Source: Fimicolochytrium jonesii (lineage: Eukaryota). Taken from it: 64,000 nt of DNA. A program made the translations under genes and the position numbers. Shown here one piece after another: positions 14,071 through 61,112 of the stretch. Location of the stretch: NCBI RefSeq assembly GCF_025526975.1, contig NW_026515681.1:682001-746000 (forward strand). Direction: 5' to 3'. How positions within the stretch are numbered: position 1 is the first letter of the stretch; the number at the start of each line of letters is the position of its first letter. Below the pieces are notes generated by a model that saw nothing but the letters and a program-made list of their open reading frames with translations, was not told the DNA's origin and ran no database searches.

Positions 14071-17000
14071 TTAAATACTGAAGAGAGCCTTGAACCCTTC
14101 CGTCACGCTTTTCGCGACAGCGGCGGTAGTGGGTGCCTCTTCAGAATCGGAATTCTTCCTGGACTCGAGGCCGCCGAGACCAGAGTCATGCCGGTGGCGT
14201 GCTGTGAGTTGCTCCCGTGCCGGGATAACCGGCGTAGGTGCGGTGGGCGTTTCGGCGAGCAGTTCTTTAAGGACCGTTGCGGCGGATTTCACATGTGCGG
14301 GCGCAAACATTGTATCGTGGCGACCTACCGGGGGGGGGGGGGGGGGGGGGGGGGGAAGAATGAGTACGTGGAGCATGATGCCATGCCGAAACTGATATGA
14401 AACCCTACCTGCAGAAACGCGCAACTGAATGTTTTCACATCTAGCGCCCCATCCATTGTAATCATCCATTCCCGTATCAAAATCGCTCGCACGCCCTGTG
14501 CGGAACCAGGCCCTGTCTTTGGGCACCACCAGTGTCACGAGCCCCTCATACCGCGCAGGGGGCTCATAATCAAATAGGCTCCCGATATTCTTGCCAATCT
14601 CAGTGCGGAGCCTATTCATCCAGGACTCGGAGATATCTGGGAAGTTCTCCGAGATGCGGTCAATGGCGCCTGCGGTCCAATCGGTGGCTTTCAGGGACAT
14701 GCGTTCCTTCCTCGGGATGCAGATCGAGTCGAAGAGGATCAGGTGCTGCACGGTTTCGCCGGCGTCTTGCAGTTTCCGCGCCACGCAGATGGCCACGTTG
14801 CCGCCGAAACTGTATCCGGAGATCACGTAAGGGCCCAGGGGCTGCACCGAGCGGATAAGCGTGATGTAATGGTCGGCCATCTCGTTGATACTGTCGAACC
14901 CGTCGGCTTGTCCGAAATGCTTGTCCCCGATCGCGTAGATCTCGTTCGGAATGAACGCGCCCAACCGCATAAACGGCGTCGCCATTCCCGTCACATCGTG
15001 AATGATGAACAACCTGGGCAAAATCCCTTTTTTCTTGATAGGCAGCAACTCGATCAAGAAATCTTGTTCGGAATCCTCGGCTTCCTGGATCTGCCGCGTC
15101 TCCCTGCCCAGCTGGTCAATGATGAACGCAGCAAGGTCGTGGACACTGCTGCGGATGTACAGGTTGTTGAGCCCCACGTGGACGTTGAATTTCTTGGTGA
15201 TGGCTTCCGCGGCTTGCACGGCCAGCAGCGAGTTCAGGCCGTGGCTAAAGAGGTCATGGTGCGTGCCCAGCGTCGAGGGGTCGATATCTAGCAGCGTCGC
15301 AAAGACGTCGATAAGGTCCGTCTCGATGGAGGATTCGGGTGCGCTGACGGCGTCGTTGGTGGGGAGCAGCGAGGTGAGGTCCATTGCCATCAGTTGCTTG
15401 CGGTCGATCTTCCCGCTGGATGTGCAAGGCATCTGGGGGAGGGCCAGTAGCAAAGAGGGGATGAGGAAGCGGGGGAGGATGGAGGACATGTGCTCTTTGA
15501 GGCCATTGAGCTCATCATCGACTTCGGTGGTTGTGTTTTTGAACTCGACAAAAGCTACGACAGCTTGTTCGTCGTGGATGGGACGCGCGACAGCAGCGCA
15601 GCGTTGGACGTGTTCGTAGCGTTGGATGGTGTCTTCGATCTCGCCGAGCTCGATTCTTTGACCTCGCAGCTAGAATTACCGGGAAGAAAAGGCCTCAACA
15701 AGGGGCAAAAAGTTGGAGCGGAAGCAGATATGCACATATGGAACATACCTTAATCTGGAAATCCCTCCGTCCGATATACTCAATATTCCCATCAGGGCGG
15801 TAACTCGCAATATCCCCCGTCTTGTACAACCTCTCGCCCTTTACGAACGGTGAAGGAATGAAGCTTTCCGCGGTGCGTTCCTCATCGGCAAAGTATCCGG
15901 AAGCAACTTGGATGCCGCCGATGTAGAGCTCGCCTTCGCAGCCGATGGGCACCGGGTTCATCTTTGAATCCAGAATGTAGGCGCGGCAGTTGGCCATGGG
16001 ACGGCCGATGACACCGCTGAGGTCGACGGAGTCGATGTGGGCGCAGATGACGTCCACGGTGGTTTCCGTGGGACCTATTTGGGGAGGTTCGAGTCAGCGG
16101 GGTTGATCCTACGAAAACATGCCCAAAGGAAGAAACATACCAAACATATTCATAAGCCTAGTCCTCTTACACCACTTCTCAATGACCGCCCTGCTCAGCT
16201 TCTCTCCAGCGACCACCACAGTCTCGAGTGTCGGGTAATCGGCAACCGGGACGGTCGCCAAGATACTGGGGGTCAAATGCAGCACATTGATCTTTAGTTG
16301 CGTGATAGCGGTCCCAATATCGCCCAGAACAAGCTCCTTGCGTCCCATGCACAGCGTCGCTCCACAGGCGAGGGTGCCAAAGACGTCCACCATGAATGGG
16401 TCGAAGGTGTATGACAAGGAACTCAGGACCCGCGCCCCTTCGTGATACCCGTAAACGTTGGAATGACGGACAAGGTTGGAGAGAGCGCGGTGGGGCACCT
16501 GTTTGGACGAAGAGAATTCGAAGTCAATGGGAATCGTCCTACAATATCACGCAGACTCAAAGCACAAAAACCCACCATGACACCCTTGGGCTTGCCCGAA
16601 GACCCGCTCGTGAAGCAGATGTACGCTAAATCCGTCGCCGCAATCTCCATCTCGAGATCCTCAGCCGGCAAGCGGGAGATGCGCTTCAGGAAGAACTCAT
16701 CGTCCATGCGGACAACAAGCGCCTGCGACGCAATCCGTCGCTCGAGGAGACGCGCACGGGCGGTGCTGGTGAGCAGGATCTTGGCGCCAACGTCCTTGAT
16801 TAGGGCCTCGGTACGCGCCGGCGGGTCATCCGGGTCAAGAGGAACGAACGCACCACCGCACTTGAGGACGGCAAGAAGACTGACGATCTGAGAAATCCCG
16901 CGGTCTATGCTGAGTGCCACGATACTTCCGGCCTTGACGCCTTGTTGGTTGAAGAAGAGAGCGGCCCGGTTGGCGAGGGCGTTGAGTTCCGCGTAAGTCA

Positions 17001-20000
17001 TGGACTGGTCTTCGTAAGTGACGGCCACGGCATCGGGGGTGAGGATGACTTGTTCCTCGAACAAGACGTGCACACAGCCTTCGACGGGGTCAACCTCACC
17101 CTCCGACGACCACTCATTGATGAGACGGTCACGCTCGGATGCGCTGATGGCAGGGATGTCGACGATCTTGACGTCCGGATTCGAGGCGGCTACTTCGAGG
17201 AGCGATACGTACGCCTGCAGGAACTGCTGGGCGGTGGTATCGGAGAACATAAAGTGGTTGAACCGCAGCACGAACGCGTCTCGGTCCGGGATCGCCGTCA
17301 GCAGGAGCTCGTATTTCTCCTCGGGGTTAGGCAGACCTTCCAAGCGCTCGATGTCGATGTGGTGCCCGGCGAGGGCGTCGCGGATGGCGTTGAGGTCGAT
17401 ACCGCCGGCCGAGAACAAGTGCTTGAATAGGCCGCGCTCCCCGGATCCGCGGCGGATGGAACCAACGATGTCTTCATAGGTCACGTCCTTGTTCTCCATA
17501 CAGGCCATGAAGTTGTCGCGGAAGGCCGACATGTACTCCGTGACGGACATGTTCTCGTCGATGGTGACGCCGATGGGGAGGATGTTGGCAAAGAACCCGA
17601 TGGTGCTTGTCAGCTGGTGCGAGCCACGATCGGTGACCATGGTGCCTACGCAGAACGACCGCTGGGAGGAGTATTTGTACAGGAGGATATTGTAGGCGGC
17701 GAAGAACGTTGCGAATTTGGTGAGGCCGAGTTGGGCGCCGAGGTTGGCGAAGTTCTGCACCACGTCGTGCGGGGCAAGCAATTCCACTTGGGTAACGCTG
17801 GACTGCGCGACTTCCGAGCGCTTGGCGAGGGGAAGGTGGAGTGGCCTGGCGTCCTTGAGCTCGGCCTTCCAGAATGCGAGCTGATCATCCCTCAACAATG
17901 CACGTGCGTCGGCAGTGCGAGCTTGCCAGTCACTAAAGTCGGAAAAGTGGATGTCCAACGGCTTGAGAACGGACCCAGTGCGGTTGATGTAGATCGTTGT
18001 CAGCTCGCTAAAGAAGATTGCCATGGACACCTCTGGATAAGCGAGGGAGGGGAATCAGTAAATGCAGCGCGGAGGTGTGCAATCATCATCTGCCGAAACT
18101 CACCGTCCATGATAATGTGGTGGATGATGACATTGATTGCCCATCGTCCGCTCCCAACCTTGTAAAGGCTAGCCTTCAACAACGGCAGGCTGTCGAGCTT
18201 GAAGTTGGGTTCGTAGTTGGCTTCGACCGACATCTTGTAGGCTCGATCCTCAGCATCGGCGTGCATGCTCAGGTCGATGAATTCGGGTTCAAACTCGACG
18301 AAAGGGTAGATGGTTTGCATCAGCTTCCCCTTCTTCTCGTCCCAGGTGAACTTCGTGCGTAGGGCTCCGTGGCGCTGAACAACCTCGTTAAATGCATCCA
18401 ACATGTACTCGTGGTCGTCGAGATCGCCGTCTCTGGCGGCAACAAGGACGTAGTAGCCTTCATGAGTGTCCCACTGAGTAGCTCCGAAGCGGCTAAGCTT
18501 CTTGTCCGCATTAGCCAATAGCTTTTTGCCATTGCCGGCCTCAGCTTGTGCGACCCAGATGCGGTACTGATGCGCAGATGCCTCGGTGACGTGTGCTTGG
18601 CCGTACACAAGCTTGTCATTGAGCAAAGGCTCGAGTTTCGCGCCGTATTTGCCCTCCATAACATCTTCGACTTGTTTGGAGTCAGAGCCGGCGGTGCTCA
18701 CGTTAACGGCCGCGATCATCGTGTTGAGGTCCGCGATGCTGGTTCGGCCCAGGAGCTGAATCTGACTGACAGCGATGCCAAATTTCATCTTTAGCTTGCT
18801 GCTCAGGTTCGATGCCGCGAGAGAGTCGATTCCGAAACTGGTAAGAGGAGCCTCCTCGGTGAGCTGCGAAGGCTCCAATCCGAGCATGCCGCTGATCATG
18901 CCGACGACGGTGTCGTCCGCCGCGCTGCGCTGACCCGATCCGTCCCCGGAGCTTGCAATCCGGCGGTGGCCCAGCAAGTGGCTGAAGAAGAGGGGTTCGC
19001 AAGTCGGGAAGGTAATCGGAATGTAGTCCGTTGCGAGCATCGGTACGTAGTGGGCGATGCTGGACAGCTCGGAGTTGATCTTCTTTCCGATTCTCCTCCC
19101 GGCGATAGCGTCTCCGACGAAATTGCACACTTGGTCAGTCGTCATCCCCATCTTGCTCAGCTTCTCACCAGCTTTGCTGCCGGTGGCAGCCATACGCTCC
19201 AACATTCGACGGAAAACTCCAACATCCGTGATGGCGGGGAAGGCCATCGATACCGTGTTGGGAAGTTCCTCCGCAATCCTGTCCAGATACAATTGGGATT
19301 GCACGTAGGCAGACTGTCCGGCGTTTCCGGTGACGGCCGCAATACTTGAAACTACAGGGCAGAACATTAAGTTGATAACCATAAATTAGTCACTACCGTT
19401 TGCAATCCCAGGTCACTTACAAAGTAGAAGGAAGTCGATGTCGTTGATCTTCTGCTCCATCACCGACAGAAGAACGTTGAGCGCGCCGACTTTGGATCCC
19501 CAGACGGTCTCGAAGTCTTCGTTGGTAAGATTTGGCAAGATGGAGTCCCGAAGAATCACCGCCATCCTTTTTTGGGCACAATATTGTGTAAGTCATGACG
19601 TAGTAGTAACGGAGTTTGAAAGTCAAGCACACTTACATGAAGATTCCTCCGATAGGTCCCACAGCGCTGGCATCATCAACTAAGCCCTTCATGTGTTCCT
19701 CGCTCAAGGCGTCTGCGGCCACAAGTTCAACGCGCACTCCAAGCTCCCGGAAGTGGTGGACATAGAAACGGTCGACCTTGGTCAGGGCGCGTTCACCACG
19801 ACGGCTGGTGAGGAAGATGTTGCGAGCGCCGAGCTTGATCATCCAGTGCGACATGCGGACACCCAGCTCAGAGCATCCACCGACGAGAAGGTACGTCTTG
19901 ATGGGGTCGAAGATCTGAACAGTCGTGTTCACGCGCTGGGGAGCAGGAAGAGGGTTCATGGTAGCGACGATTGTGTCGTGAGCGAAGTCGGTCGTTCGAG

Positions 20001-23000
20001 TCAAAGCGGCGGGAAGCTCTTCGAAAGACGTAACCTCGACAGGGAATCGGAAGGGTGTTGTCTGATGAGCGGCGACCAGTTTGGAAATAGCTTGCGCAAC
20101 GGCCTCGGGGTTGTATTTGAGGATATCGACCAAGGATACCGTGACGGTGGCGGCGGCGGTTGCAGGCAAGCGGACCTCCTCGGAGGCCGAACGCTTGACA
20201 TGAACGTAGCGGCCCGCAGGGGTGAGGAAGGCAGCATTGGCAACGAACTCGCGGTCGGCCGTAGTGTTGACTGCGTGATCGAAGCCCGATCGACGGTTGG
20301 CTTTCAACCAAGCTTTGAGCTTCCGGGATGCTTCTTCGGGACCGCGGTTGAGCAGAATAGACTGGGGCTCGACTTCAAGGTCTCTGGCAAGCTGTTGAGC
20401 TTGTTCCAAAGTGTCGACGGTGCAGAAAACTTGACCAGAAGGTGCTAGGCGCTTTGCAAGCTGAACCGCAAGGTACCCCGTGGTGGTGTGAGCATTGGCG
20501 ATGAGGAAAGAGTCCGTGGCGCGAATGAGTCCCTGTTCAACGAAGGCGATCCAAATCGGTAGCAGGGCAGGTAGCAAAGCAGCGACTTCGATACTCGCCG
20601 AAGAGCCATCTAGGCGTGCCACGCCAGCAATGCGAGGATATACCACGTCAGCGATGGGACGGGTAGCGCTCGAGGTTGCGATTCCTACAATGTCTTTTGT
20701 AACGAATCCGAAAACGTTGTCCGTGCTGCCAACGTTGGAGCCGACAGACACGGCATCCACCTTTACTTGCATGAATTCGTGATCTTCGCTGCTGATGACG
20801 GGTTGAGGGAAATAAGCCGCCAACTCCCAATTCCCGGCAGCAGATCGAACCAGTTGCATGTGCTCCGCGTCGGGTTGTTTCACGGCTAGATCGCTGGGCA
20901 CGAGCCTGCGAACGGTGAGCTTGCCGTCCTTCGTGAGGCGCATGTGCTGTTCAAGGAGCTCGGGGTTCTTGCGAAGACTGTAGATCAAGGCGTTTCGGTC
21001 CTGCTCAGAAAGTGTTTGGTCCTCAAACAGAATGGAGCGCACAGTGAATTCGGGCTGTTCGGCGGCGAAGCAGGCGGCGACGCCGAGAGCCCCAATGCCC
21101 GCGGCATCATCGTTTCCGACAATATAAAGCTCGGTGGAAGGCGCTTGCACCTTCACAGCTTCCGCAAGTTCTCCTTCATTGCCTCGGTGCATGTGGAAAA
21201 TGGTGACCTGACCGTTCGTGTCTTCGGGAGAAGCTTCGGCGAACTCGATCGGAACCGCGGGACGGCTGAAGACGAGCAGATGGCTTCCGTCGTCAAGTTT
21301 CTCGAGTTCCAGTCGGTCGTCCTCGGTCCGCTTGAAGAACGAAGAGACGTCGTTGAGAAGGTCGACCTTGATACCTGGGATAAAGAGCAATGTCAATGGG
21401 TTGGAGAGGTTGTAGAGTAAGCGGTAGCAAGGGCTAACTTTACCTGGGACGTGAGCCAGAAGACAACCTCCAGGAACTAGCAGGGAGCTAACCGCTTGAA
21501 CTTCGTCTCTCCAGAGTTCGCCGAGGTCGACAATATCCAGCGAGTGAAGAACGATGTCATAGGATCCCGCACGAAGAGTCGTCTCTTCCGCGGAGATCGG
21601 ATCGAAGATGCCGGACTCTACATTAGCGTACTTCATTCCCTCGCTCTTTGCGTCGGCCGTTTCGGCATCCCCCGCCGCACAAGTGTATTCTATGGAGAGT
21701 TCAGTGGCATCCACGGCGAGCAAGATCGGGTCGAGGGCCTTGGCCAAAGCGGCGTCAGGAGACAGGTCGGCGATTCGAAGAGCCTTCCGCTGGCCGAGCA
21801 AAACGGTGTGTGCGATAATCTCTTTCACCGTAGCGGCAGCAGTTGCATGCAGAGAGTCGGTGTGGAGAGACAGGATGCGGGTTTCGGGAAGGATCATCTC
21901 CTTTGCCTGCCAGCAAGTGGTAAGCCTCTCCTTGACGTTGGCATCGCTCACGCAAACTGCCTTCTCGGTTGGTAGCCGCGCGATCTCGAAGTCCTCCATG
22001 GTCAGAAGGACGCGACCATCTTCGAGAGCAATAGTGTAGCTTGCGACGTAAGGCCCGTCCGGAGACCAGGTGTCGAAATGGAAATGGACATAAACGTCCT
22101 TTCCGCGAATGACCTCGTCGACAATGGACTTGGAGTCCTCCCAACGCGTGATGCAGCCAATCTTGACAGGCACAAACAATCCGTTCATGTCGAAGCTGAG
22201 GGTTTCGAATTGGATGAACATCGCCAGACCGATCTGAGTCATGCTGTCTAGAATGCCTGGGTGCAGGACATAGCCGCGGTCGAACAGGTCGGGGTAGTCT
22301 TGCTTGATCGAAAACTTGCCGAGGTAAGATGTGCCGCCCCACGAGTTTGGGTCGTTCAGCTGGTGGACTTCGGCCAGGAAGTCCCGGAAGGAGCCGGTGT
22401 AATTGTAGCCTTTTGGGATAGCGCCGTGGAACTGGTCGCCCGTCATCTTGGCGGTAGACATCCCAAGCCATTTCTGGATGTCGGCGGTGGGAGGGTTTTG
22501 CTTGTCCAACGCGGGGTTGGTGTAGGCCAGACAGCCGGAGGCATGCACGGTGTCAAAAACGACATCTCCATTCTTGAACTCCTGGTTAGTGGCGGACTTG
22601 AACTGGAACTTGTCGCCTTCGATGGCGCAGGCGACGTGAATGGGGAGAGACTCTGCGTCAGGCAGAACGAGGGCCTTTCCGATGATGACGTCCTTCACTA
22701 CCATCGCCTGGTTTTGCAGAACGGCCTCGACGTATCCCGACCCCGGGAAGAGGACACTGTCCATAACCGTGTGACCCACGAGGGCGGGGTGGGTGCTGAC
22801 ACTGAGGCGGAAGTGAGGTGCGCCGAGAGGAAGACTGTCTTCTTGGTGCTTGCGGGAGTAAGCACTTTGGTCTTCCTTCCAGCAAGAACGCTTGGAGGTG
22901 TATGGGTACGGAGGCAGAGCGACTTCCACAAAGTCGGCGACATTGGTGATGGCGACATGTTCTTGTGCCTTTGATGGAAGGGCGCACAATTTGTCGAAAT

Positions 23001-25914
23001 CCAGCGAAGTGTATCCGGACGAAATCAACTGGCCGAGGCCTTCGAGGAATTGGAAGTCTTCACCAGTGTTGCTAGCCGGGTTCTTGCGATCAGGACGACG
23101 GACCAAATTGATGGGCGACGAGCCGCCGCACTGCTCGATGTACGCCTTCAGGACGGGATGAGGAGCAATCTCGAGGAATGCGATATCCTCGCCATACTCG
23201 TCGATCACTTTCTTCAATGCCGGTCCGAAGAGTACAGGGCTTTCAATGTTTTGCCAAGCCAGTTCAAGGTTCAGCTCGTCAACCCAATCGCCGGTAACGG
23301 TAGACATGACGCGCGAGCAGGGTCCGGCAGCGTTGCCCATGGCGAAGACCGGGGTAGCGTTGTTCTTGAAAAGAGTTTCCCACTTGGACATGAGCGGGGT
23401 GTGGAACGCACAGGTGACGCGAAGCTTGGCAGCAAAGACGCTAGCATTCTTGGCGTGGGCAACCAGAGCGTCGATAGCGTGATGGGTACCAGCAACCGTG
23501 ACTCCGTTGGGAGAGTTGATACCGGCGATCCACATGTCTTCTTTATGCCCGTTTTCGGCGTTATTCTCCTGCTTCAGCACCTTGCGAATGAGGAGTCGGG
23601 CTTGCTGGGCGCTTGTTCCGAGAGCGGCCATGGCACCGTTGCCCTCGGCGTGTGTCATCGCCGCTGCGCGAGCTACCGCAATCCCGACAACCATCTCCTT
23701 CGACGGGTAGTGTCCCGAAGCGTAGCCCATGGCGATCTCCCCGATAGAGTGTCCCATGCACACCTCGTAAGTAGCGACACCCTTCGCCCGGAGGAGGTCA
23801 ACCAATGCACATTGCATGAAGACGAGGGAGAAGACGACGTCTCGAACGGGCCAGACACCATTGGCGGGGAGCTTGCACGGAGAGTTGGGGTCGAAAACTC
23901 CAGTGCGGTCGATGAAGGACTCTTGTCCGTACACGGAAGTCAGAATCTCGTCCGACTGGCGAACGGAGGCCAGGAATTCCGGGAAGGCTGCGGCGAGCTC
24001 CTTGCCCATCGCAACGTGTTGAGGTCCCTGTCCGGCAAAGACAAGACACAGCTTCTTGCTGGCCCTAGCCGTGTGGGTGCTGAGGGCGGGCTTGGAGAAC
24101 GAGAGAGAGGTGTCAAGTCGCTTGCCAACCGCGAATGATCGGTAAGGGTAATCCCTGGCTTGACGACCGAGGGAGCGCGACAACGATCGGAGAACGTCGG
24201 CGTCATCGCAGGATGCGAAGTGTTCACCAAGGTCTTTGCCCCATTGGGTCAATGAGCTGGCGGTCATTGTGCCGATGGAGAAAAGGTAATGCGGGTCGGC
24301 CGCGCGCTTCTCGCTGACGGCGCCGGAAGTGTCGTTCTCCTCTTGGCTTGCTCGTTGAGCGACCGACATCGGGATCGAGTCAGGCTCGGCTGCGAGTGCG
24401 ATCATTTGCTGGGCCGATTCGAAAGTCTCGAGAACGAGATGCGCGTTTGCACCACCGACTCCGTAACTGGAAACAGAAGCCACCCACTTTCCATCAGCAG
24501 CCGCGAGCTCGGGAGTCATTGGCTCGAGTTCAGTCTGCACGCGCATGTTGAGGGCCTTGAGGTCGATCTTCTTGTTGGGGCTGTTGAAGCGGTAGTTGGG
24601 GATGATCTCCTTCTGATGCATCATCATCGTGACTTTGATCAAACTGGCGAGGAAGGAGCATCCCTCGGCATGTCCGATGTTGCCTTTAACAGAACCGATT
24701 CGAAGGGTTTTGGATTGGTCGCGATTCGGAGCGAAGACTTTGGCGGCGCCATTGGTTTCGATGGGATCGCCGACAACAGTTCCCGTGGCATGAAGTTCGA
24801 CAAAGAAGGCTTCAGCGGGGTCGCGCTCGGCGCGCCTGTAAGCAGTGCGGATGACTTCTGCCTGCATGTCGCCTTCGGGCATGGTCAGCGATTTGCCCTT
24901 TCCGTTGGTATTGATGGCGCTTCCGGCGATGACGGAGTAGATCCTGTCGCCGTCGCGAATGGCATGGTCGAGACGCTTCACGAGCACGGCCGCATAACCT
25001 TCGCTACGGGCGTAACCGTCACCGGCGGCATCGAAGGATTTGGAGGAACCGGTGGCAGAAAGAACGCCAAGTTTGGAAAAGGAGACTGTGTGCTCAGGGT
25101 TCACCATCGTGCTGGCGCCGACCACGAGAGCTTGGTCGATTTCACCGAGGCGAATGGCTTGCAAGGCGAGGTGCATAGCCGTCCCGGAAGAAGAGCATGC
25201 TGTTTCGGGAGATTGCGCGCATGAGACGGAAATCGCGATTCACATGATTGAAGCTGAACATACCAGTGTCAATGACCAGGGACGGCCCTTGCAAATTGAA
25301 AGTGTAGGAAATGCGGTTCGCGCTAAACCGACAAATGTGAGATTCTGCAGACAAGGATGAACTGCATAACAAGCGTCCACTTACCGAATAGCGACGCATT
25401 TCCCAACTCCATTGTTGTGGTCGATTTCATACGGATCGTCTTCCAATTCAGCAGTGGAGGTCAACAATTGAGCGAGGTAAACACCGGTGTTGGTGCCTCT
25501 GTAGGCCGCGCCAGAGTCGTGGAGAGCCTGTTTTCGTTGGAACATGGGTTAGATTAACCGCCTTTCGCCTCCATTTTATATGGCACCTTCTCCCGTTTGC
25601 CTTACCTGATGAGCGACTTCCAAGGAGAGCCGGAGGGAGGGATCAAGCAATTGCGCCTCCTTGACGCTGATTCCAAACTCAGTGGGGTCGAACATGTCGA
25701 TATCGTCCACGAAGCCGGCGGTGGGGGCGCAATACTTGCCCGGTTCATCCTTGCGCTCGGAGAACCACTTCTTGTGGTTCCAGCGGCTGGCGGGAGGCGG
25801 GACCATGCCGTCTCCCTTGTTGCGAAGGAACTCGTAGTAGGTCTCCTTGTCGTTGCAGCCTTTGGGGAATTTGCAACCTAGACCGACGATGGCGACGGGG
25901 ATTTTGGCGGACAT
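14071..25914 (-). CDS. Iterative type I PKS-NRPS hybrid: KS-AT-DH-(degenerate MT)-(degenerate ER)-KR-ACP-C-A-T-TE, multi-exon
   Basis: KS DTACSS (across an intron), ELHATGT, GNIGH; AT GQGPQ, GHSIG, CAFH; DH HPALVGHTVMDSVLFP and HPGILD; KR GGCSELG...LRD...GNAGQSAY; ACP GIDSL; C HHIIMD; A FTSGSSGKPKG, FGPTE, YKTGD, GRRDFQIK, SGKIDR; T GLNSL; TE GYSFGG and GRHDTM. Confidence 0.95.
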
Positions 25915-27900
25915 TGTGCGGAGATGAGTGTGATATCGAGTATTGATGCGATTTGTTGAGGAAGCTGTTTTTTTAATGACTGTCGGAGTCTGTTTTTCGT
26001 GATTGATTGAGGCAGATGTTTGCTTTGAGGGGAAGCAAACAGGTGTCGGGCGATTTGTAGTTGATGACAGCGATGCGAGAGAAGCAATAGTCGTCGGAGA
26101 GATGGTGAACGCAAAGTCAAAGATCAGGAGGCTGAGGGGACCTTCTTTTCTATGTTTCTTTGCTTGGAAGGGTAGGGAATGATGACAAGGGCGCCGTATG
26201 GACAACCGAGGGGAGTGGCAGATGGCATCCTGGTTTTATGGTGGCCGATGCTCCCTCGGCCTGCAAGGCCGGTGCTAGAATACAGATGTTCGCAGTCCCT
26301 GCAAAGGTCCATATCATCCGCCCCTGACTATCTTAGCCGTCGACTATGCGGTAGAACTGTGAGAGTGTCCGCCGACGGGACTTTGCCGCCGAAGGAAGCA
26401 TTACAAAACCAGCCACTCCTATCGTGCCGTCATCCCGCTAGTCGTGGGCGCTGGTGTGGGTTTTCGGGGCATATGTTCTCTCAGTGTTGGAAGGCAGAGG
26501 GCTGACGGGGACGGAGCTATTGATGTTGCAGGGTATGTACCGCACAGATTCTAGGTTTCCGGCCTTGCGGATGCCGGCGAGGCTCGTCCCCGAACCCCGC
26601 TCACAATCATAAGCCTCAGTCAGATGGTATTACCATCTAGGGTTCTCGGGACCTGGCATGACCCAAGTTTCGTCTCTGCGAATGCGAGCGCGGGAATCGT
26701 CGGCGAAGGTCCGATTTTGCTCAAATCAACGGCGCCGTCGTCAGAATATCCCCCTCCACGCTAAGAGAAACGGTCATGTCAACGGCGCCGTAGCCAGTTG
26801 GACCCGCACAGACGGCCCGATGTCTGCTGCGTTCCTGCTTCTTCATTCCGAGCGGGGCGGTCCATCCAAGATGCCCAGCGGGCCTGGAAGCGACGGAGGG
26901 ATTTCAAGGGGGAACATCATTCTCCGACGGCCCAAAGCATCTCAGGGCGTATACTGACGTGACAGCACCAAGCACTCCTTCGGCGGTGCGGAGCGAAGAC
27001 GAGCCAAGCTCTTTTGCTCCGCCTTTGGAACTTCGAACTTCGAAGTTCGGCTGCGCTCCCTGCAGCTCCTCGTGCGCGGCTTGAGCTTTGTCCATTGTGT
27101 GAACCATGAATTTTGAAAGCTGTGCGTGCAAACTTCAAAGTACTAAAGGTGGCAATTTGCAGCAGGGACCACGGTTCCACGATGCCACCCACCCAACGCG
27201 TCGAAAAGTGGCGTCCATCGTCGGGGCCCTTTTCTTTTAAAACTTCCAAACCGCTGGATCTTCTCCATTTCGAACCGGTAACGGTAATGAAGACGCCCAT
27301 CATCAACAAAGATCATCTGGCCAGTAACAGCTCCAGAAGTTGTTATTGTTCTGTAGGTGGAATTATCACCATACAGTTGGCTCTATAGTAGGCTCCATTA
27401 CAGGCTGAGAACTTCATGCCGCTTGTGCCATGGAAATGCAATTTATGACTTGCGCACATTCTCGCGGGACCCCAATATCATTGCTACCGGTGATGATCAA
27501 GGTTCGCTCTCGCACGTCTCAGTGTCTCACGGTGCCGACCTATGAAGAGCGCAATGGTGTACGAGATATTAGTACGACGGGCGAGCTCAAGGGCCTTCAC
27601 TTCGGTTTTTATCCACCGCTACTAGTGCGAGAAACAAAGAGGTTATCTTGATATCCTCCCCCTTCCCTTCTCGTACACTGACGTCCTGTCTCTAAGAAGT
27701 AACAGAAACGTGAGTCTATAGGGGCGTGGTTTCCCTCTCCCGTCCTCGGCCGTTGTTCCTGTTCGAGCCCCATTTTGCTTTATCGCCGAGCTGTGGTGTG
27801 GTCCTCGGAAAACCTACGAAACAAAGTCTCCCGTTCTGCAGTTCACCGTTGCTGACTTGCTGCTCCGTTCCGTTTTTGTCGTCAGAGCACCCTTTCAACA

Positions 27901-47341: not shown

Positions 47342-48664
47342 TCATCCTCTCTCGCAAGCCTCAATCCGCACACTCAACTCCTCCCAGCTCATTTCCCTGA
47401 ATCCCGCGCACGCCTTGCTGTCGTCCTCTCCTAACCCCATACCCTCACCCCGCCCATTGACCCGATGATCTACACTCATCATATTCCCATCCTTTGCGTT
47501 CCTCCCATCATTCCCACTCGACCCCACAGCGGTATCCTCACTGGTGTGATTATCAGACACAGGAAGGTAGCAATACGCCGCCGGATGGTACGAGTCGAGA
47601 TAAGACATGTGGAACGTGTATTGCGCCTGCGGGATGTTGTCGAGGGAGACGGTGATGTGCGGGGTGGCGGCGATGTCGTCGTGCAGTGCATGTCCTGGAG
47701 CAGCATCGTTCTTGTCCTGCCCGTAAAAAACACATCAATCCACACGTACAGCACACAGCAAAGAGGGGAAATCGGAAAGTACATACTGCATCCTTGACAC
47801 AAAACTCCACCCTCATCAAATCCAACCCCAGCCCGATCCCTATCGCCTTCACAAAACTCTCTTTCAAAGCCCAAAGCGTCACGAACCGTCTCAATCGCTC
47901 CGCATTCAGAGTATGTTTGCGCAACATCTCCGCCCTCGCGCTCCTCTTCCTGCCGCCATCACCCTCCTGTGTTGTCTCGCCGTTGATGTACCCCCATTCA
48001 TTCGGGGTGAAAATCTCGTCAAAGGCCGCGAAGTATTCGTCGAGGGTCTCGTTGGTGGGCTTCTCGAACCGCGACACGTCGACGCCGAGTTGCGACCCGT
48101 ACCCGGCCGCGACGATGACCCAGTCGCCGTGGTGGGAAATGTTGAAGAGGAGGTGGGGGATATCTGGAAATGACTGCATTTTTTTTTTTGCGAAATCACT
48201 TAGAAGAACCACACACGCGCAAAAAAAACAAACGAAAAACCAAACAACATGGGTTTGCAAAAGAGCTTACCAAAAACGGCTTCCCGTATTTATCCCTCTC
48301 GACCTTTACGTCCGCCCATTTTTCCCTTGATGGCGCCGGGATGAGCGCCATGACGGCGGCGCGGGCGATGAGCTGGCCGATGAGTGCGCGGCGGGCGTCC
48401 ATGGGGAAGCGGAAGCGTTTAATTTTGGTGCGTTCGTGCGCCGGGATTTTCGTTAGGAGGGTTTGGATCAACTGGGCCGAGGGTAGAAGGATCATGAATG
48501 GAAGAGTTCGGCAAATGACACGTAGATGCGGAAGTCATAAATCAAAACATCCCTCTACAACGAAAACGCTCAAGTAGGGTCGGGGATCATAAGAGACATA
48601 CCTCAGGCGTCGGCTTCCACGTCGCGACATGGAACGACCATCTGATCATCCGCGGCTGGTCCAT
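47342..48664 (-). CDS. Sfp/Lys5 (AASDHPPT)-type 4'-phosphopantetheinyl transferase
   Basis: Exon 1 MDQPRMIRWSFHVATWKP; ER..IKRFRF..DARRALIGQL; RDKYGKP; FNISHHGDWV; LGVDV; FTPNEW; WALKESFVKAIGIGL. Confidence 0.9.
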
Positions 48665-51600: not shown

Positions 51601-52086
51601 ATGTGTTGATGTAGATATTGCTCCCACGGAGGCGGCGGTGAGGAGACCGGATTGCGGTCGCTCCGACATTTCGTCCATCCTTACTGGCCTCCCAGGGTTG
51701 AAGTTCGTAAGGAGCGGGATTGCTCACCTCAGCCGCAGAAGTGTTCTCTGTCCGAAGAGCGCCAGGGAGCGGCCCGTTTGCACGATTTTTGTGGGTATTG
51801 CACAGAGAAGAGGATTTTGCGGGGTACTAATGAGCCAGAAGAACCCGGGTCCCAAAAACTCTGTCGCTGCTGCTCTACGTTCATCTCTACAAGGTTTCTT
51901 TGTGCGTCACATATCAATAGGCAGAATATCAGAGTAAGGCCAGAGTGAACATTGATGTATGTACATGAAGTCGGGATACAATGCAAAAGAGGTCGGATTA
52001 AGATGTTGGTCTACGTAAAAAAAAACATTTCAAGGAGATGCGAATATCAAATGGGAAGCGGATGTGTACGCCGTGATGACCTGAAT

Positions 52087-55000
52087 TCAGTCCTTACCTG
52101 AGCTCGCTTTCATTAATTGACTGAACAGCGAGTCAGGTCGGCCAAGCAACACCTCCGGTCGTTCAAACTCAGCAACGGAGCCATCGCTCATTACCAACAC
52201 TTTGTCAAAGCCGGCGATAACCGGCTCCTGCAAACGATGCATCACAGACAGTACCGTGGCGTGCGGACACCGCTCACGGATAATCTTATGTATTGTCTGC
52301 TCCGTCTTCGCGTCAACAGAGCCGGTGGCTTCGTCAAGGAGGAGGATGCGCGGGTTGTCGAGGACGGCCCGTGCAAGGCAGAGGAGTTGGCGTTGCCCGG
52401 CCGAGATGGACTCCCCGTTGCCCGTGACAGGCGTATCCAATTTCTGGGGAAGGGATGAGACGTACGGTTTCATGTCGACGGCTTCAAGCGCGCTCCAGAG
52501 CTGCTCGTCGGTGAGGTTTTGCCTAATGTCGAGGGTGGTGCGGATGGTGCCTGTGAAAGAAAGACGCAGCCTTAGCTTTCGGCGGTCTCACAAAGGCAAT
52601 GCATCAGCTAGTCGGCCAGATTTGCTTACCTGAAAACAGGTATGCATCTTGCACGATGAGGTTGAGTCCATGCCTCAAATCCTCCAGTGCCATAGAATGA
52701 ATCTCCCGATCGTCTACAGTAATGCTGCCCGCATCTCTCTCAATCATGCGCAACAGTGCGAGTAGCAGCGTGCTTTTCCCACTTCCAGTGCGTCCCACCA
52801 TGCAGATGCGTTGACCGGGGAGGATCTCGAGATCGACGTCTTGCAGGCATAATCGGTCAGGCCGGCTCGCGTAGTGCGCCGAGAACCCCTTGACCCTTAT
52901 GTGGCCTTGGCTTGGCCACGCTTTGCTAGGATCTACACGAATGTCTGCACCCTGTGCCTCGGACGGCAATCGATCTGCATATTCCTGCAGTCGGAGTACC
53001 GAGTAAATCTCGCTCTCCAGGTTCGCAATGCTCCGTACGATGATGGTCATGATGTAAGTGAGAGCGGCCGAGTACGCCAACGCCATGCCAAAATTGGATG
53101 CCGTTCCCGCAAAGGAGGTTTCGCCGAGACCCGCGAGAACCGCAATCACGACCGCGGAGATGAGGTCCATGCGCAGGGTTACCCACAGCTCGGCATTGTA
53201 GCGGAGGAAGGATGCTCGATTACTTTGGTCGATCAACTGTTTCGCGCGATGGCGGAAATCGTCTTCGCGGCGGAATGCGGATATGGTGGGGATGCCTTCC
53301 ATGGTTTCGTTGATGTACGAATACAGCGGCGAGCGCTCGGTAGCTTCAAGTCGGCGAAGCTCTCGCGCGGTACGATGGTAATATCGGAAGACAAGGTAGT
53401 AGGCGATCACCATGACACCAAGAACCGCTGCAAGATAAAATACCATGTGTCAGCCGGATGTAGATCTAGAGCCTCAAAGATAGCCAAGGCCATGGACTCG
53501 TATACCCACCAGACATGATTGGAACGTTATACGTAACCGTAACCGCGATGGACAGAAATGTCCCGAGTCCAGCAACCAATTGAAAAAAAATCGGCATCAT
53601 GGCTTGGTCAAGGGCCGCGACGTCGCGAGAGAAGCGGTTGACAATACGCCCGACAGATTGGCTTTCGAACCACGAGAGTGGGGCACGGAGGACACCTTCG
53701 ACCGCGCGCTGATGGAATGTGTTGGATGCTCGAGATACGCCGCGCAGAATATTCGTGTTCATGATGACTATAGACAGAAACGAAGGAGTGTTAGGTCTCA
53801 AAGGAGATCTGCAATCGCTGCCAAAGAGAACTTACTCAGAAGGAAGGCGGCCGTCCAAGCGACGGCGTTGTACCGACCGATCCACCAATCCGTTCCCTGC
53901 ATAAACTTATCCGACGTCCACCACGACAGCCATTGGGTCATAATGACATTTCCCGCCTGGTAGAGCAGGATCTGAACCAAAAGTGAAACGAGTATGAGCC
54001 CGCCACCAGCTGCGTCAATGTAGCTGCGGTAGGTTGACCAGGAGACTGAGTCACTCATCTCTTCCGCTATGATCGTCGCCGGTAGCGTTTCCGCCGACAG
54101 CTCTATTGCTGTATTGCTGGCCGACGTGGCCGCAATGTGAGAAGGTACTTTTGGATCCTCGGCCGTGGTGGCCTCACTGGCATCATCTTGCTCCTCCGAT
54201 GCTCTTGCTTTCCCGGCGAGAAGAGCAGAGAGGTGCGTACCCGCCTTTGAGAGCTCTGTAAATGACCCTTGCTCCAATACCCGTCCTTCGGACATGACGA
54301 TGATAGAGTCGACGGCTTGTAGAAGGTCCAGGTGATGGGTGACCAGGATGCGGGTCTTGGACGCGAGGCCCTGCCGAATGCAGTTCTCGAACACTTCGCG
54401 AGCGACAGTGGCATCCAGAGCGGCGAGGGGATCATCCATGACATATATATCTGCATGTAGAAGGAGGGCCGCACAGTTAGTGTGCTGTTATGCATCGGGT
54501 TTCATAAGCCTTGCGAGCAGCAGCATCCTGCTTACCAGCATCATTATACATCGCTCTAGCACAAGCCAGGCGGGACTTCTGTCCTCCCGAGAGATTGGAT
54601 CCTTTCTCCGCTATGGCGCTATGGATGCCATCTTCGAATGAATCCACATCCCTTTGCATGGCGGTAGCGCGGATGACATTCTGTAGCTTCCGTTCGTCAT
54701 AGGGGAGGCCGAACGTGATATTGTCTTTCACGGTTGTGCTCTGCACCCAGGGCTGCTGGGAAGTGTAGGCAAAAGTCCCACCCACGTACGCCTGGACGAT
54801 GCGACTTGATTAGCGACATTATTTGCCATGCGTGGGCGAATCCTCAGTCACTTACGTAGCCCTCAACGCATTGCATGTGTCCAGTAATCGCAGACAGCAA
54901 ACTTGTCTTCCCCGATCCCACAACCCCGACAATCGCCGTAAGCGATCCCTTCGGAATATTCACATTGATGTCCTTCAGGAAAGCGCTGTCCAGCACAGCC

Positions 55001-58000
55001 GATGTTGCGTTCGCCCCGACGTCCACGGACGTATGATACTCCTTCGGCGCCCATGAGAAAGACGCCTTCTCGATCAGAATGGCAGTTTCTGACGATAACT
55101 TGGTTTCCGCGGCGGGTGCCGAGTGCGACGACCTCTCGGTCACGGGTACTTGACGTTTGGCGGTGAGGAACTGGTACACACGTTTCCAGGATTGACTTGC
55201 GCTCATGATCCCGCTGTTCGATTGAGTACGCGTAAGTCCATGCAAAGTATCTCCTAGCGCTTTGACGTAACAGACCTGAGCGTCTGCGGGAGAGCAATAA
55301 GAGGATCGACCAAAATGCTGAAGAACGCAATAGATGGGAATACAATCGCGGCCTTCATCATATGGCCTTTAGCTGCGTAAAGACTGAACGCACAGACGGG
55401 TGCAATGGTCGTGCCAAGCTAACACATGGGAAAAGTGGGTCAGCCAAACCTGTCCAGAGCCGGCACATTTGTACTCGGGGCTTTTAAACTCACCTGACCG
55501 ACGACAACAAAGCACACTATCCCGATGTTGAATACGAAAAGACTCTTTGCCTGATTGGCGCGCGCGGCAATGATCTTGCTCGCAAAGATCTGTTCCCATA
55601 CTTGCGCTTTGACGAGTTTGATGCCTGTCATGCGCAAACCCATTAGCCGGAAGTATTCACCCCAACAAATGTGAAGGCGAACATGCATCTCGAACATACC
55701 CTGCACAGTCTCCTTGATCAATCGGATCCTCTCGTCATCGAAGCGGGACATCTGCGGCGCCGCACGAGCCATCAAAGCAGGTGCAATGAACATGACGACG
55801 AAGACGGCGCCGATGAGTCCACCGGCGCCTGCCCACACCGATATGCCAAGGATGTGGCCCATGATGGCCAAAACAGTGACAATCTGAGCCGGGATCGCCC
55901 AGAGATCGTGCATTGATTGCAAGCCTCCGGTAATCTGGGCGGGCGGCAAGAGACGGTCAATCAATGCTGTCTCCATGGTGCATTGTGATCCAAAACAAAA
56001 GCACACATACCCCTTCGCAATCCACAGTGACGAGATTAACCACATATCCCTTCGAAAACCGCTGAAAGCTCAAGCTATCCACACTGAGCGTCTTCTCAAA
56101 CACCGCATTGATAAGCGCCGTCTTGACATTAAGCGCAAAACGGCGCATGATCTGCTCACTCCCTCGACCCGCGAATGTGAACAAGATGCGTAATGCCAGG
56201 AGGATCCCTGCATTGATGTAGATCGAGTCAAAGAACAACGGCATCCCGCCCGTGGCTTCTAGGATCGCGTCGTTGTACTTGTCGACGGCTTCGGGCGGGC
56301 CGCTGGGCCGTGGAGGCGCTTGGGAGCAGATGATGATTTGTTGGATGAAGAGTGGGGTCGCTAGCGATGCGGAAATGCAGAGGAGCCAGAGCAAGCCTGC
56401 TGTGCGTCTTCAAATATAGATACGGAAGTAAAGGAAATTGAAAAGCAAAGTCAGTTACTTTCATTCAATCGTTGCAACAAGCATTATATTGTCCAAGAAG
56501 AAGTTGTAAATGTACACGAAAAAAGGCAGGGGTGAGTCGGTGGGCGCGCACTCACATGTAGCCTGTGTTTGCCTTCAGCATATCCCCAAACAGTCCCGGT
56601 GCCTTTCCCTCTCTCCCTCCATCATCCCACTCCCTCACCCTGCGCTCAAAGTCATCCATCGACTTGCTGACCGTCTCGGTCGTATCTTTCACGTTCAATT
56701 TCAGTAGATCATCCGCGGACAATGGTCGGGAGGCGCCGAGTTTCATGAGCGGGGTCATCCACGAAACATCAACGGTTCTGAGCCCGTCGTACATGGTGAG
56801 GTCGCCGGTGTGTGATTGCTTCTGTTGCTCCGTGCCGTGGGCAGTGACAGTCACGTGGTCGACTTTCCCGCTTTTGAGAAGCTCGGTGGTGGAGTCCATG
56901 AACGCTAAGGGGTCGCATATGTCTGGGACGATGGGCTGGACTTCTATCTCGTCTTCGACGATGGAGTCGATGACCTTGACTTGCATGAGGGAGTCTTTCA
57001 TGCTGAGCATGCTTTTCTGGAGTTGGATTTCGTCCATCGTTTCGGGCGAGGTCTGTGTATCTGTGCCCCGCGCGCCGTCCGCTTCTTCTTCGACTCGGGT
57101 TCCGTCGCTGTCGGAGGATGAGTCTTTGACCGCTGGTGACGAGAAGCGGACAAGGAAGCAATGAGTGAGTGAATGGAAGCGGGTATAGAGTGAGAAAGAT
57201 GGCAGATCGCATACCGAGCATCATCCTAGCTAAACGAGTGAGCGTCATCTCGGTATCAAACAGTAGGCACTGTTCTTCCTGGAAATCATAGTTGGTCTGC
57301 AATTTAAAGTACAGACGCAACATAGCAATCGAATGCAGCCCCACATCGGTCAACGGCGCGGTAATATCGATCGTGTTGGCGTCGATCTTCAGGATCTTGG
57401 AAATATCCGCGGCGATCAGGTTGGCCAGGGCCGTGACTTCGCCGTTAGCCGACGACGACCCATCCTGGACGCTCTCGTCTTTCGCCGACATGGTCTTAGA
57501 GTCGTCGACGTCTTCATCCTCGGCATTTTGCGGGGACGCGATGTTCCGTGGTCCCAAGGGCGCCGACCGGCCCTTGACATTGTCTTGCACGACTTCCGCC
57601 GCAGCCACAGGCCCCACCGAGTTCTCCACCGGCGTGCTTGCATCCGCCCACGTCTGCAACAATTGCATATCGACTTTGAAGCTGGCATTGAACGGCATTT
57701 CCGCCAAATGCTGCGGTGCGATTGGCAAAGTCAGCCCATCGTTCTTGACCAAATCTTGCAACAGCCCGCGAATGCACTGCGAAACCATGGCGGACGTTGC
57801 TGACCCGGCATGAAACAGCGTTAACATGTCGCGGTGGACGCCTTTCATGAGCTTGAACGCCGCTACACCCGCCGCGGGGTCCGAGAGGGGTTTCCGAAGC
57901 AGATTCTCTACGTCGTCTAGGTCGATGAACAGGCCGTTGATCTTGATGTTGCGTGACTTGCGGCCCTTGACGACGACGGCGCCGCGGGCGGTATACTCGC

Positions 58001-59481
58001 CTATATCGTCTGAGATGAGGGTTAGCATGTCTAGGTCAGTGCTGATTTCGGGAGCGGTGGCGCGGAACATGTGCTGGGTCGCCGCGTCGTTGCCGAGGTA
58101 GTGCGTGGCGCTGTGCTTTGTGACGAAGCCGATGATGCCGGAGACACCGGTATGCTTGGGGAGTGGGGTGTAGGTGTGTTGGTCGAGGAGAACCAGATCT
58201 TCGCAGCCGTGACAGGGGCGGTAGCATATCTCGCGGGGGATGGTTGTTGCGGGGCCGATGAAGCATTGTGCGATTCCTGCGAAGCCCGATTCTGAGCACT
58301 ATTGCGGAAAAGTACATAAGATTGGTTGTTTCACTCAGGTCAGACGAAGACGCTGTATACCCACAGCATAATTGCACGCAATAGTCGCATTCGGAAACAT
58401 TCGTCTCGCAATAGCCGTCAGATCCCTCGTCACGGCCTCCCCACCCAGCACAAGCCAATACATGCGTTTAAACTTCGGTGACGTATTCCCCGCCATCATC
58501 TTGGCATACTCAAAGAACACGCGAAACGCACTGGGCGTAAAATGTGTGCGCATGGGCTCCGTGTGGGAGCTTTCCTGAAGCTCCCAGAGGAGATTGCGGC
58601 ATTGGTCTTCCATGCTTTTGCCCGGGTCGAGGTGCAGAACGGTTTTGTTGAATGGGAAGCGGCGAACTTCGAACAAAGGGCGGAGGAAGGTCTGCAGCGT
58701 TTGCAGGAGACGAAATTAGTGATGCCGTAAACTTAGAAATATAATCGGGAAGGGACCCTTACCGTTCCTCCACGAAGCCATTGCACATCGTCGGTCTTAA
58801 GAATGTCATCAGATTCTTGCGAAAGGATTTCAAGAGACTTGCGCATGGGATAGACGATTGATTTCGGAACCCCAGTAGATCCGCTAGTGAAAAGTAAGGC
58901 AAGAATGAATCAGCCATCACCTCATGATCGTAGCCTCATATCAAGCTCCCTGAATGAGGCACCTACCTGGTAGGAGTAATGGAGCATATCCTCGGAACAG
59001 AAATGACACGGTCGTTCTCGAGTGACGGGATATGTGGCTCTGATAGAATCGGGATATCGCGAGTCGATACAAAGGTGACGCCCGGTATTGGCACCGCCGG
59101 CTTCTCCGCCTCGCAATAAAGCACGACCGCACATCCACACCGGCGGAGAATGGTTTCGAGAACGGATGCCGACCATTTTGGGTTCAGGAACAGGACGGTC
59201 CGGCCAGCGAGCCAGATTGCATGCGAGCCGGAAACGTAGTCCAACTCCATGCCCGTGTAGAGACCCACTGGGGCACCGCGCGGCGAGTCGGTTGATAACG
59301 ATGTGGAAAGAAGATGCTCGATGTAGGATGCCTGGGACCGCACCCGTTGCCAGATGTCGGTGTATGTCCATGATTGATGTAAGATGCGCAGGGCGTGCAG
59401 GTCTGGGTCGGATTGGGCAACTAAGAGGAGCTCCTCGGTGGGAGACCGCATTGTGAGCGGGTCGGGCGCGACAGAGACCAT
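52087..59481 (-). CDS. Predicted fusion: adenylation domain - carrier (T) domain - full ABCC/MRP-type ABC transporter
   Basis: [10 protein letters not shown] (spliced), [48 protein letters not shown]; in-frame intron 57133-57214 leads to the lasso motif [23 protein letters not shown]1 [24 protein letters not shown]2 [21 protein letters not shown]. Confidence 0.8.
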
Positions 59482-59598
59482 GCTTAAGGCCTTGCTGGGG
59501 CGATGCAGATGTTGATCTTTTGAAACCTTGGTGGTCTTTGGTGTCCAGTGCCAGTGCCGTTGCAGGCTGGCCGTGCGAGGACACCCCGGCGGTCTTCT

Positions 59599-59606
59599 AT
59601 TATATA
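59599..59606 (-). promoter_or_regulatory. TATA box of the A-T-ABC gene
   Basis: TATATAA on the minus strand about 120 nt upstream of ATG 59481. Confidence 0.45.
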
Positions 59607-60055
59607 CCGCCACAACGTTTGCCTCTGCCGACCCGGGAGAACAATCCCAGTTAAACATTCCCTCCTCCTCTTTCTTTTCCCCCGTCACATCCTCCGCACA
59701 CACGTTTGATCCCGCTTGATGGAAAGGATTGTGATATCATCACTTTGCATTCGGCCGTGGATTTCGAAGCACGGCATGTTTTTCCCGTATCTCAGCAACT
59801 CGTTTTGAAAGCAGGCGCCATTTTGTGTCTGGTAATTGCTTCATACGGTTTGTTCTTGAGCCCGCCTCACCGCCGGGCGCAACGTCTTTGCCGGTACGCA
59901 GAAAGATTGGAAACAGGTAGCCGGCCACGTTGTGGCGGAAGGTACCAGTCCCTAAGAAACGCATGCATCCTTATTGCTGTTTTCCTCCGTCCGAGCGCTC
60001 TTGCTTCCGTTTTCCTTGGAGTCTTGGATTGGGGCGACGGCCCGTTGGCCCCGCT

Positions 60056-60147
60056 TTGACAGGTCGGTGTTTTGACGGAGCGACGGCAGACGGAGTGTTT
60101 CCACGCGCGCTGTGACTCATATTGACAGGTTGAGAATATTGACAGGT
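60056..60147. promoter_or_regulatory. Three TTGACAGGT repeats upstream of the A-T-ABC gene
   Basis: TTGACAGGT at about 60056, 60122 and 60139, plus TTGACGG at about 60072. Confidence 0.45.
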
Positions 60148-61112
60148 TGCTTGCGAACACAAGAAAAACATGGATAACTCGTGCAATCGTGGATCAGGCG
60201 GGCCTAGCACCGCCCTTCTCCGTCAAGGCGGGCAGGCAGGCAGCAGCCCAGCCAGCAGGCGGTTTGTGTTTCCTGTGTACAGTGTAGTTCCAGTGATGTC
60301 GGAAGCCTCTCTCTCGGTCAAGCTGAACCGTCGTGGAATCCGCTAGGGAAACGCCCCAAAACAAGAATGATGGGATGCATCAAATCGTGCTGAAATGCAG
60401 ACCCAGCCTGAGATGAAAAGGACGGAACAGCTGATAACAACCAATCAAAGCGGCAACAATCAACGGGGTGGCTCGGCTAGCGGCTTGTCTCCCGTGTGCA
60501 TGCGCATGGGACGCAGAAGCCTCTCTATTACCGTTGTGCTGAATCCCGTTCAAAGCTCCAAGACGCGACGATGGAGCTGCGTGTGCACGCAAGGCATTCC
60601 ATCAGAAGCGTTGGATAGACACAAGATCACTGCTGGTTTCCCGCATTTGGAGGGGAAATGGAACGAACGAATGATATGGGGAACAACGCTCCAAACGGAG
60701 GAAACGAATATCCGAAAAGAACTAGACTCGCAGCATTCACTTCCGAATCCGGAACCCCCTCACGCGGGTAAGGGCCGGCGGAAAGCCATCCATCGCATCG
60801 GTGAAAGCGCCAATGCCATTGTAGCCAGCTACACACCCTACTTACAAGAACCCCAAAGAAAAAAGACCAAGTGCAAGAATAGAGGTATATACAACGAACG
60901 ACTTGCACAAACCGAAGGGGTCCAGAAAAAAAAAAGGGCGCAAGTATGAAGTCTTTGAAACGGACCCACCCCAACAAAGGTGGGAAAGAGGAAAAAGGGG
61001 GGTATATACAGTACATTGCCTAAAACCTACGAGAAGTTCTAAACCCTAAAAAAAAGCCAACTCGCAAGGGGAGGGGGGGAAGGGGGGGGGGGGGTGCTCC
61101 CAATCGCCAGTC

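Follow-up and report, generated by a model that had tools for sequence, protein, structure and literature searches.

The 64,000-nucleotide (nt) stretch of DNA analysed here, referred to hereafter as the window, spans positions 682,001 to 746,000 of contig NW_026515681.1 from the chytrid Fimicolochytrium jonesii. On its minus strand lies a predicted gene that joins an adenylation (A) domain and a thiolation or carrier (T) domain, as in nonribosomal peptide synthetases (NRPS), to a complete ATP-binding cassette (ABC) transporter of the ABCC family. The gene extends from a start codon at 59481 to a stop codon at 52087 and has 15 exons, which when joined give 6279 nt and 2092 amino acids (aa), the sole stop being terminal. 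All 14 introns are GT-AG and are 62 to 148 nt long. The domain order of the predicted protein is A, T, an acidic linker, a lasso region, two transmembrane domains (TMDs) and two nucleotide-binding domains (NBDs). Read from the DNA, the locus is predicted to be one chytrid gene encoding a single protein.

Gene model and domains of the fusion protein

An earlier note on this stretch had placed an in-frame splice between the T domain and the transporter at an 82-nt GT-AG intron (57214-57133). This intron and all other coordinates in that note hold. The frame is open across the junction, and the intron contains a single AG, with branch-like sites at -38 and -34; its retention would shift the frame into a tail with a stop at 56769. 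A phase-1 GT donor follows the aligned codon in a stand-alone carrier gene elsewhere in the window, which supports the donor at 57214. The same note had cautioned that the next junction (~56412-56555) needed either an AAG acceptor or a micro-exon. The AAG acceptor was borne out: it is the first AG past a branch-like site, and the resulting join of exons 5 and 6 is gapless against all six homologues. The micro-exon was not, since the only other inner AGs of intron 5, at -145 and -52, provide no usable AG...GT pair for an in-frame micro-exon and the register is already gapless. Retention of intron 5 would bring in a stop at 56552 and is predicted to yield a soluble A-T-linker-lasso protein.

The model was compared with the output of a spliced aligner that was given the window DNA and one homologue as guide protein, without the hand model. 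With a guide from Irineochytrium, 14 of 14 introns were recovered, including the junction intron and the AAG acceptor. With a bolete guide, 12 of 14 were recovered, the junction intron and intron 7 being missed, and two spurious introns were added, both in unconserved stretches. The AAG acceptor was selected with both guides. None of AATAAA, ATTAAA and TATAAA occurs within 51500-60500.

The A domain gave a Pfam AMP-binding match in exon 1 (E 1e-10). Its motifs and pocket residues, like the NBD motifs below, were read by eye and not from a scripted motif table. The A3 P-loop, A5 Glu, A7 Asp, A8 Arg/Lys and A10 Lys are all present. Alignment with LgrA showed that the amino-binding Asp of motif A4 is replaced by Leu, suggesting a substrate outside the amino acids; six of seven fused proteins have Leu at this position. 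The ten pocket positions, which we take to be numbered after PheA, read Leu, Arg, Phe, His, Val, Gly, Asn, Phe, Ala and Lys, again the same in 6/7 fused proteins. A pocket with Arg, His and Asn makes a single polar, conserved non-amino acid the likely substrate. Identity to intact homologues was 42-53% for the A domain and 41-57% for the transporter; by this measure the A domain is conserved as well as the transporter. The fold matches of a homologue, the Pisolithus A-T protein, were NRPS A domains; this AlphaFold2 model (mean predicted local distance difference test, pLDDT, 60) was used for fold class only, the pocket region having a pLDDT <50.

The T domain, in exon 4, scored 23.4 bits against a Pfam PP-binding cut-off of 20.8. 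The predicted phosphopantetheine site is Ser644 (codon 57332-57330), and this Ser is retained in 5/6 homologues. No condensation (C), reductase (R) or thioesterase (TE) domain that might release the acyl group was found by Pfam in the window model or in any of the six fused homologues. The T domain is joined by a long, acidic, low-complexity and poorly conserved linker to what we take, from its family label, to be the ABCC lasso region.

Each half of the transporter matched both ABC_membrane and ABC_tran in Pfam, and its best solved structural relatives were all ABCC proteins. Hydrophobic segments are absent ahead of residue 878; there is accordingly no TMD0, and the A-T part is predicted to lie in the cytosol. 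ABCC proteins usually have one degenerate and one canonical nucleotide site. NBD1 has a Walker A motif, signature and H-loop, with the catalytic Glu of Walker B changed to Asp, and NBD2 has Walker A, Walker B with its catalytic Glu and the H-loop. In Ycf1 and MRP1 the anion site comprises an Arg of transmembrane helix 16 (TM16) and a Trp and an Arg of TM17. In the window transporter, aliphatic residues take the place of the TM16 Arg and the TM17 Trp of Ycf1, so that two of three positions are lost and a glutathione-conjugate cargo becomes less likely; export of an acyl-glutathione was rejected as the leading explanation on these grounds. Beside the lost Arg, a conserved acidic residue occupies the position of a Ycf1 Asn. 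A complex prediction, run without alignment, of the T domain with the lasso-TMD1 and TMD2 parts of the homologue P0169 scored 0.00, which gives no verdict on contact between them.

Fused relatives and stand-alone forms

A phmmer search with exon 4 returned 969 matches, of which eight had E values no higher than 1e-30. A word-based search with the same exon, restricted to 633-2000 aa, gave no match; most fused proteins exceed that size. Among the eight phmmer matches was a protein of 2232 aa from Irineochytrium annulatum, a member of the Chytridiales, with AMP-binding, two ABC_membrane and two ABC_tran matches. When its A domain was searched among proteins of 1227-3906 aa, a range blind to short forms, 198 matches were obtained. 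The top six (E up to 2e-57) all carry both ABC domains: two are from Irineochytrium, one each from Astraeus and Chiua, and two cluster with Pisolithus and Imleria. The seventh was an ordinary NRPS (1e-27). Had homologues always been encoded as two genes, the single-gene fusion proposed in the earlier note would have been in doubt; these six full-length fused homologues, together with a fused contig from a bolete relative (below), support it. The fusion is conserved in two chytrid orders and in the Boletales. One marker, a CWC25 gene in the window with 78-82% identity to proteins of Geranomyces, Powellomyces and Thoreauomyces, most likely places the window chytrid in the Spizellomycetales. Neither homologue search found a further member in that order; within the reach of these searches, the family therefore has a patchy distribution. 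The Atlas search returned generic A-T clusters only. A sister A-T protein from Geranomyces variabilis (P0057, KAJ3150429.1) has a 430-aa C-terminal part with no Pfam match that is, by eye, possibly condensation-like.

Metagenome DNA yielded 24 related loci. In four, the T domain and the lasso lie in one stop-free frame with no intron between; 15 encode an A domain and two or three T domains with no intact lasso; five are truncated where the contig stops. Among the fused loci, L003 (6267 nt) is a single intron-free frame of 2008 codons. Because the genomic locus L013 has 11 introns, L003 is interpreted as a fused and spliced mRNA from a bolete relative. Five of the 14 window introns are shared with bolete-type L013 in codon and phase, one of the five depending on a gapless alignment register. 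Two lie in the A domain and three in the transporter, which argues for common descent of both halves. L004 (122-2373) is spliced within the A domain and ends within the intron after the lasso; it predicts a soluble A-T protein and represents a retained intron or a short isoform.

The stand-alone A-T-T(-T) loci (L001, L002, L005-L012, L014, L018-L021) have no release domain. Several have intron-free contigs and intact motifs, and three end in a vestigial lasso-like tail. Genomic loci L011 and L018-L021 are followed by a gene for a ubiquitin-like activating enzyme, and VHS/GAT or FMO genes are found repeatedly upstream of stand-alone loci.

In several lineages the introns that flank the lasso look weak or retained: the intron is retained in L004, a GC donor occurs in L016 (P0169 residue 786) and the window has the AAG acceptor (56555-56408). 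It is possible that such introns switch between soluble and membrane forms. A GC donor just after the lasso was also considered as the reason why public annotations split the gene, and was rejected; the donor there is GT in L013 and L016, and in L016 it is the next intron that is GC-AG.

In A-domain trees the family, including the Boletales, formed a clade of 18 rows with support of 99 (quick tree) and of 17 rows at 100/100 (second tree). The second tree omitted P0007 (gappy), P0057 (long branch) and seven of ten bacterial outgroups. The window protein and Irineochytrium lay, in unresolved order, outside the Agaricomycete-type clade (93/97, second tree); a single chytrid clade was neither rejected (p-AU 0.218) nor supported in that tree. 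Recent transfer from boletes was rejected, as the window protein is not nested in the bolete clade. Stand-alone forms nested among fused forms in both trees. Within the limits set by long branches, the fusion looks ancestral and the stand-alone forms look derived, with at least two origins; nested in this way, they appear to have kept A-T without the pump.

Neighbouring genes

Features of the window are collected in Table 1. The stand-alone carrier gene, 11 kb from the fusion, is a paralogue of the fusion T domain (95% probability in a further comparison); against the terminal exon of the polyketide synthase (PKS)-NRPS it scored E 0.30. A fusion of the GH3-family gene with this carrier at 37-41 kb was considered and rejected in favor of two genes. 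The PKS-NRPS ends in a thioesterase and lies 26 kb from the fusion gene, to which its functional tie is putative.

Table 1. Window positions of the parts of the fusion gene and of genes near it
Feature	Position	Strand	Basis or remark
TATA-like element TATATA	59601..59606	-	125 nt upstream of start codon
Exons 1-5	59481-58967, 58883-58763, 58691-58365, 58298-57215, 57132-56556	-	open frame and spliced alignment
Exons 6-10	56407-56011, 55934-55700, 55624-55494, 55418-55276, 55213-54856	-	open frame and spliced alignment
Exons 11-15	54791-54536, 54450-53836, 53767-53510, 53427-52630, 52550-52087	-	open frame and spliced alignment
Adenylation domain, NRPS type, aa ~14-540	57642..59442	-	Pfam, homologue alignment, LgrA comparison, fold match
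Carrier (T) domain, aa ~608-682	57215..57440	-	PP-binding above cut-off
Intron 4, T-to-transporter junction	57133..57214	-	82 nt, GT-AG, phase 1
Acidic linker, aa 683-800	56780..57132	-	9-20% identity to homologues
ABCC lasso region (presumed)	56556..56779	-	25-39% identity to homologues
Intron 5	56408..56555	-	148 nt, AAG acceptor
TMD1, 6 hydrophobic segments	55159..56407	-	Pfam ABC_membrane and hydropathy
NBD1	54215..54990	-	Pfam ABC_tran; motifs by eye
TMD2, 5 segments over hydropathy threshold	52967..54061	-	Pfam ABC_membrane and hydropathy
NBD2	52111..52912	-	Pfam ABC_tran; motifs by eye
Sfp-type 4'-phosphopantetheinyl transferase (PPTase), bounds approximate	47556..48534	-	AASDHPPT_N, ACPS; 3.5 kb downstream of fusion
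RTA1-like membrane protein gene	~45590-47008	+	between stand-alone carrier and PPTase
Catalase-family gene	42554-43825	-	between stand-alone carrier and PPTase
Stand-alone carrier protein gene	40593..41026	+	intron 40861-40934; 30% identity, E 5e-11 to fusion T
GH3-family acyl-acid amido ligase gene	37166..39380	+	domain match; adjoins stand-alone carrier
PKS-NRPS hybrid KS-AT-DH-KR-ACP-C-A-T-TE, bounds approximate	14074..26235	-	domain matches

Other features of the window were noted in passing. Two minus-strand open reading frames (ORFs) at 50487-51460, between the PPTase and the fusion gene, have no NCBIfam match. The product of 27856-28866 (+), beside the PKS-NRPS, is hydrophobic and probably crosses the membrane several times; it matched neither Pfam nor NCBIfam. 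Near-identical direct repeats spaced by 643 nt occupy 32109-33478 (84 nt three times at 96%, 300 nt twice at 98%), and the ORFs beside them at 30958-32189 have no Pfam or NCBIfam match.

Possible function and known systems

The earlier note took the architecture to be undescribed; this did not survive a look at the literature. A paper by Kovalchuk from 2013 is said to have been the first to report an ABCC transporter with an AMP-binding domain. Kovalchuk et al. (2015; PMC4692070) describe such proteins in the Boletales and propose that biosynthesis and transport are coupled, crediting the idea to a 2013 paper. The transporter core of this ABCC7.5 type is described as an isolated group among fungal ABCC proteins, and a link to NRPS clusters is given for Serpula and Coniophora only (PMC4692070). 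The words "phosphopantetheine", "thiolation" and "carrier protein" are absent from the main text of PMC4692070, and "phosphopantetheine" and "PP-binding" from its six supplement files. Titles and the beginnings of abstracts revealed no published chytrid member, carrier domain or experiment, most subscription papers being outside this coverage. The fusion itself is therefore already in print, and the chytrid locus is a new member of a described but uncharacterised family. To this are added the carrier domain, family members from two orders of chytrids, a conserved pocket without the amino-binding Asp, the stand-alone forms with A-T-T(-T) and a cluster in which PPTase, stand-alone carrier paralogue, GH3 and PKS-NRPS genes lie together. 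The range of the family moves from one class of mushrooms to two chytrid orders. With these likely partners within one 45-kb stretch, the coupling idea becomes testable.

We favor, at a probability of roughly 45%, a scheme in which the protein activates and tethers a non-amino acid, a partner acting in trans brings about its release, and the pump carries out the export. The A domain would activate a non-amino carboxylic acid with ATP, and the activated acid would be tethered to the carrier, whose Ser644 may be primed by the neighbouring PPTase. Release would take place beside the pump, through a separate enzyme or a small nucleophile acting in trans; local candidates are the GH3 ligase, the stand-alone carrier and the PKS-NRPS. 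The pump would then export the released product rather than an unrelated cargo. If true, the coupling of acylation and export in one polypeptide would represent a new mode of operation for an ABCC pump.

Several points weigh against this scheme. The linker of the predicted protein is long and unconserved, and the PPTase may be a housekeeping copy. In mycorrhizal Boletales AMP-binding ABCC proteins have no link to biosynthetic clusters (PMC4692070). The 76 flanking ORFs of at least 150 codons at 12 genomic metagenome loci gave no NRPS, PKS, GH3 or PPTase match; 11 of these loci are stand-alone or cut-off forms, and intron-rich genes can escape an ORF scan. Gene models at NCBI break the gene into two for Pisolithus tinctorius, P. 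orientalis and Imleria badia, so that public annotations divide it in at least three genomes. The same clusters also contain five proteins of 2021 aa and four of 2004 aa, encoded on contigs 6.2-8.6 kb long, and these support a fused gene; from a further contig of 6470 nt came two pieces, with the break close to NBD1. The Chiua virens protein (P0171, KAG9315666.1), possibly a decaying or mis-annotated copy, has Pro where the carrier Ser would be, and the front part of the A domain is missing from its model. Finally, the persistence of stand-alone forms also fits halves that work independently.

The likeliest alternative, which we nonetheless regard as unlikely, is that the transporter serves mainly as a membrane anchor and co-expression device, with A-T feeding a separate pathway and the pump exporting an end product or some other compound with no direct hand-over. 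Stand-alone forms apparently arose at least twice from fused ones, three retaining the vestigial tail, the linker is unconserved, and there is a precedent in the cereulide NRPS, which an ABC transporter holds at the membrane (PMC7527721). However, the fusion, with unchanged pocket residues, has been retained in lineages as far apart as chytrids and boletes, and an anchor alone would not require both nucleotide sites to be intact.

A composite proposal, which we consider quite improbable, is that of an ancient fungal machine in which the ABCC core unloads the carrier-bound acyl group while pumping and in which retention or polyadenylation in the post-lasso intron switches between soluble A-T and membrane A-T-ABCC, a switch later fixed as the Agaricomycete A-T-T(-T) genes. 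Its first element taken separately, cleavage or transfer of the carrier-bound thioester by the core during transport, seems doubtful to us. We know of no ABCC protein with intrinsic thioesterase activity. The analogy would be to peroxisomal ABCD transporters acting on acyl-CoA, whose thioesterase activity is reported (PMC6642094, PMC7838297). The lack of C, R and TE domains in the window model and all six fused homologues, the mycorrhizal boletes without neighbouring clusters (PMC4692070) and the acidic TM16 residue in place of the Ycf1 Asn would all fit, yet the pump-less forms with intact motifs and intron-free contigs suggest that release does not always depend on the pump. We give similarly little credence to A-T as a sensor, in which acylation of the carrier would alter the restraint by linker and lasso and so gate the export of another cargo. 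A-T does sit where long ABCC proteins have TMD0, directly ahead of the lasso and connected through the acidic low-complexity linker, and it lacks a release domain; but the linker is not conserved, and the tandem carriers of stand-alone forms and the carrier gene of the cluster point to acyl flux. Separate products, with one transcript for A-T that stops near 57100-56500 and a second that begins at Met 57037, are very improbable: Met 57037 has a good start context, L004 ends in the post-lasso intron and three NCBI annotations split the gene, but that Met is not conserved, only 82 nt separate the halves with no stop once spliced, in four relatives T and lasso are not separated by an intron, and full-length intron-free contigs exist. 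A short isoform could exist alongside the fused form.

The favored scheme, coupled activation and export, has partial parallels. In peptidase-containing ABC exporters an enzyme is physically tied to a transporter. LplT-Aas joins an importer of the major facilitator superfamily to an acyltransferase (PMC8154325), and the cereulide NRPS is tied to CesCD, a non-covalent bacterial partner (PMC7527721). None of the three is an ABCC protein with a phosphopantetheine carrier. Short ABCC exporters (the Yor1 group ABCC7, MRP4/MRP5) have, like the window protein, a lasso followed by TMD-NBD-TMD-NBD, no TMD0 and one degenerate and one canonical nucleotide site, whereas the window protein has a 680-residue enzyme module in front. 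Fungal NRPS-like A-T-R, A-T-TE and A-T-C enzymes share the NRPS-type A domain and a carrier with its attachment Ser; in the window protein a transporter follows in place of the release domain. The Geranomyces A-T protein with its 430-aa tail is the closest outside relative seen. The nearest match is BoledABCC7.5, which has the same architecture, an AMP-binding domain and a full ABCC core in one polypeptide, and belongs to the same family. Its first ~400 residues are by eye close to P0169, with which the window protein shares 49-55% identity in the A domain and NBDs. Compared with BoledABCC7.5, the window member is from a chytrid, lies outside the Agaricomycete-type clade and has as gene neighbours a PPTase, a stand-alone carrier, a GH3 ligase and a PKS-NRPS.

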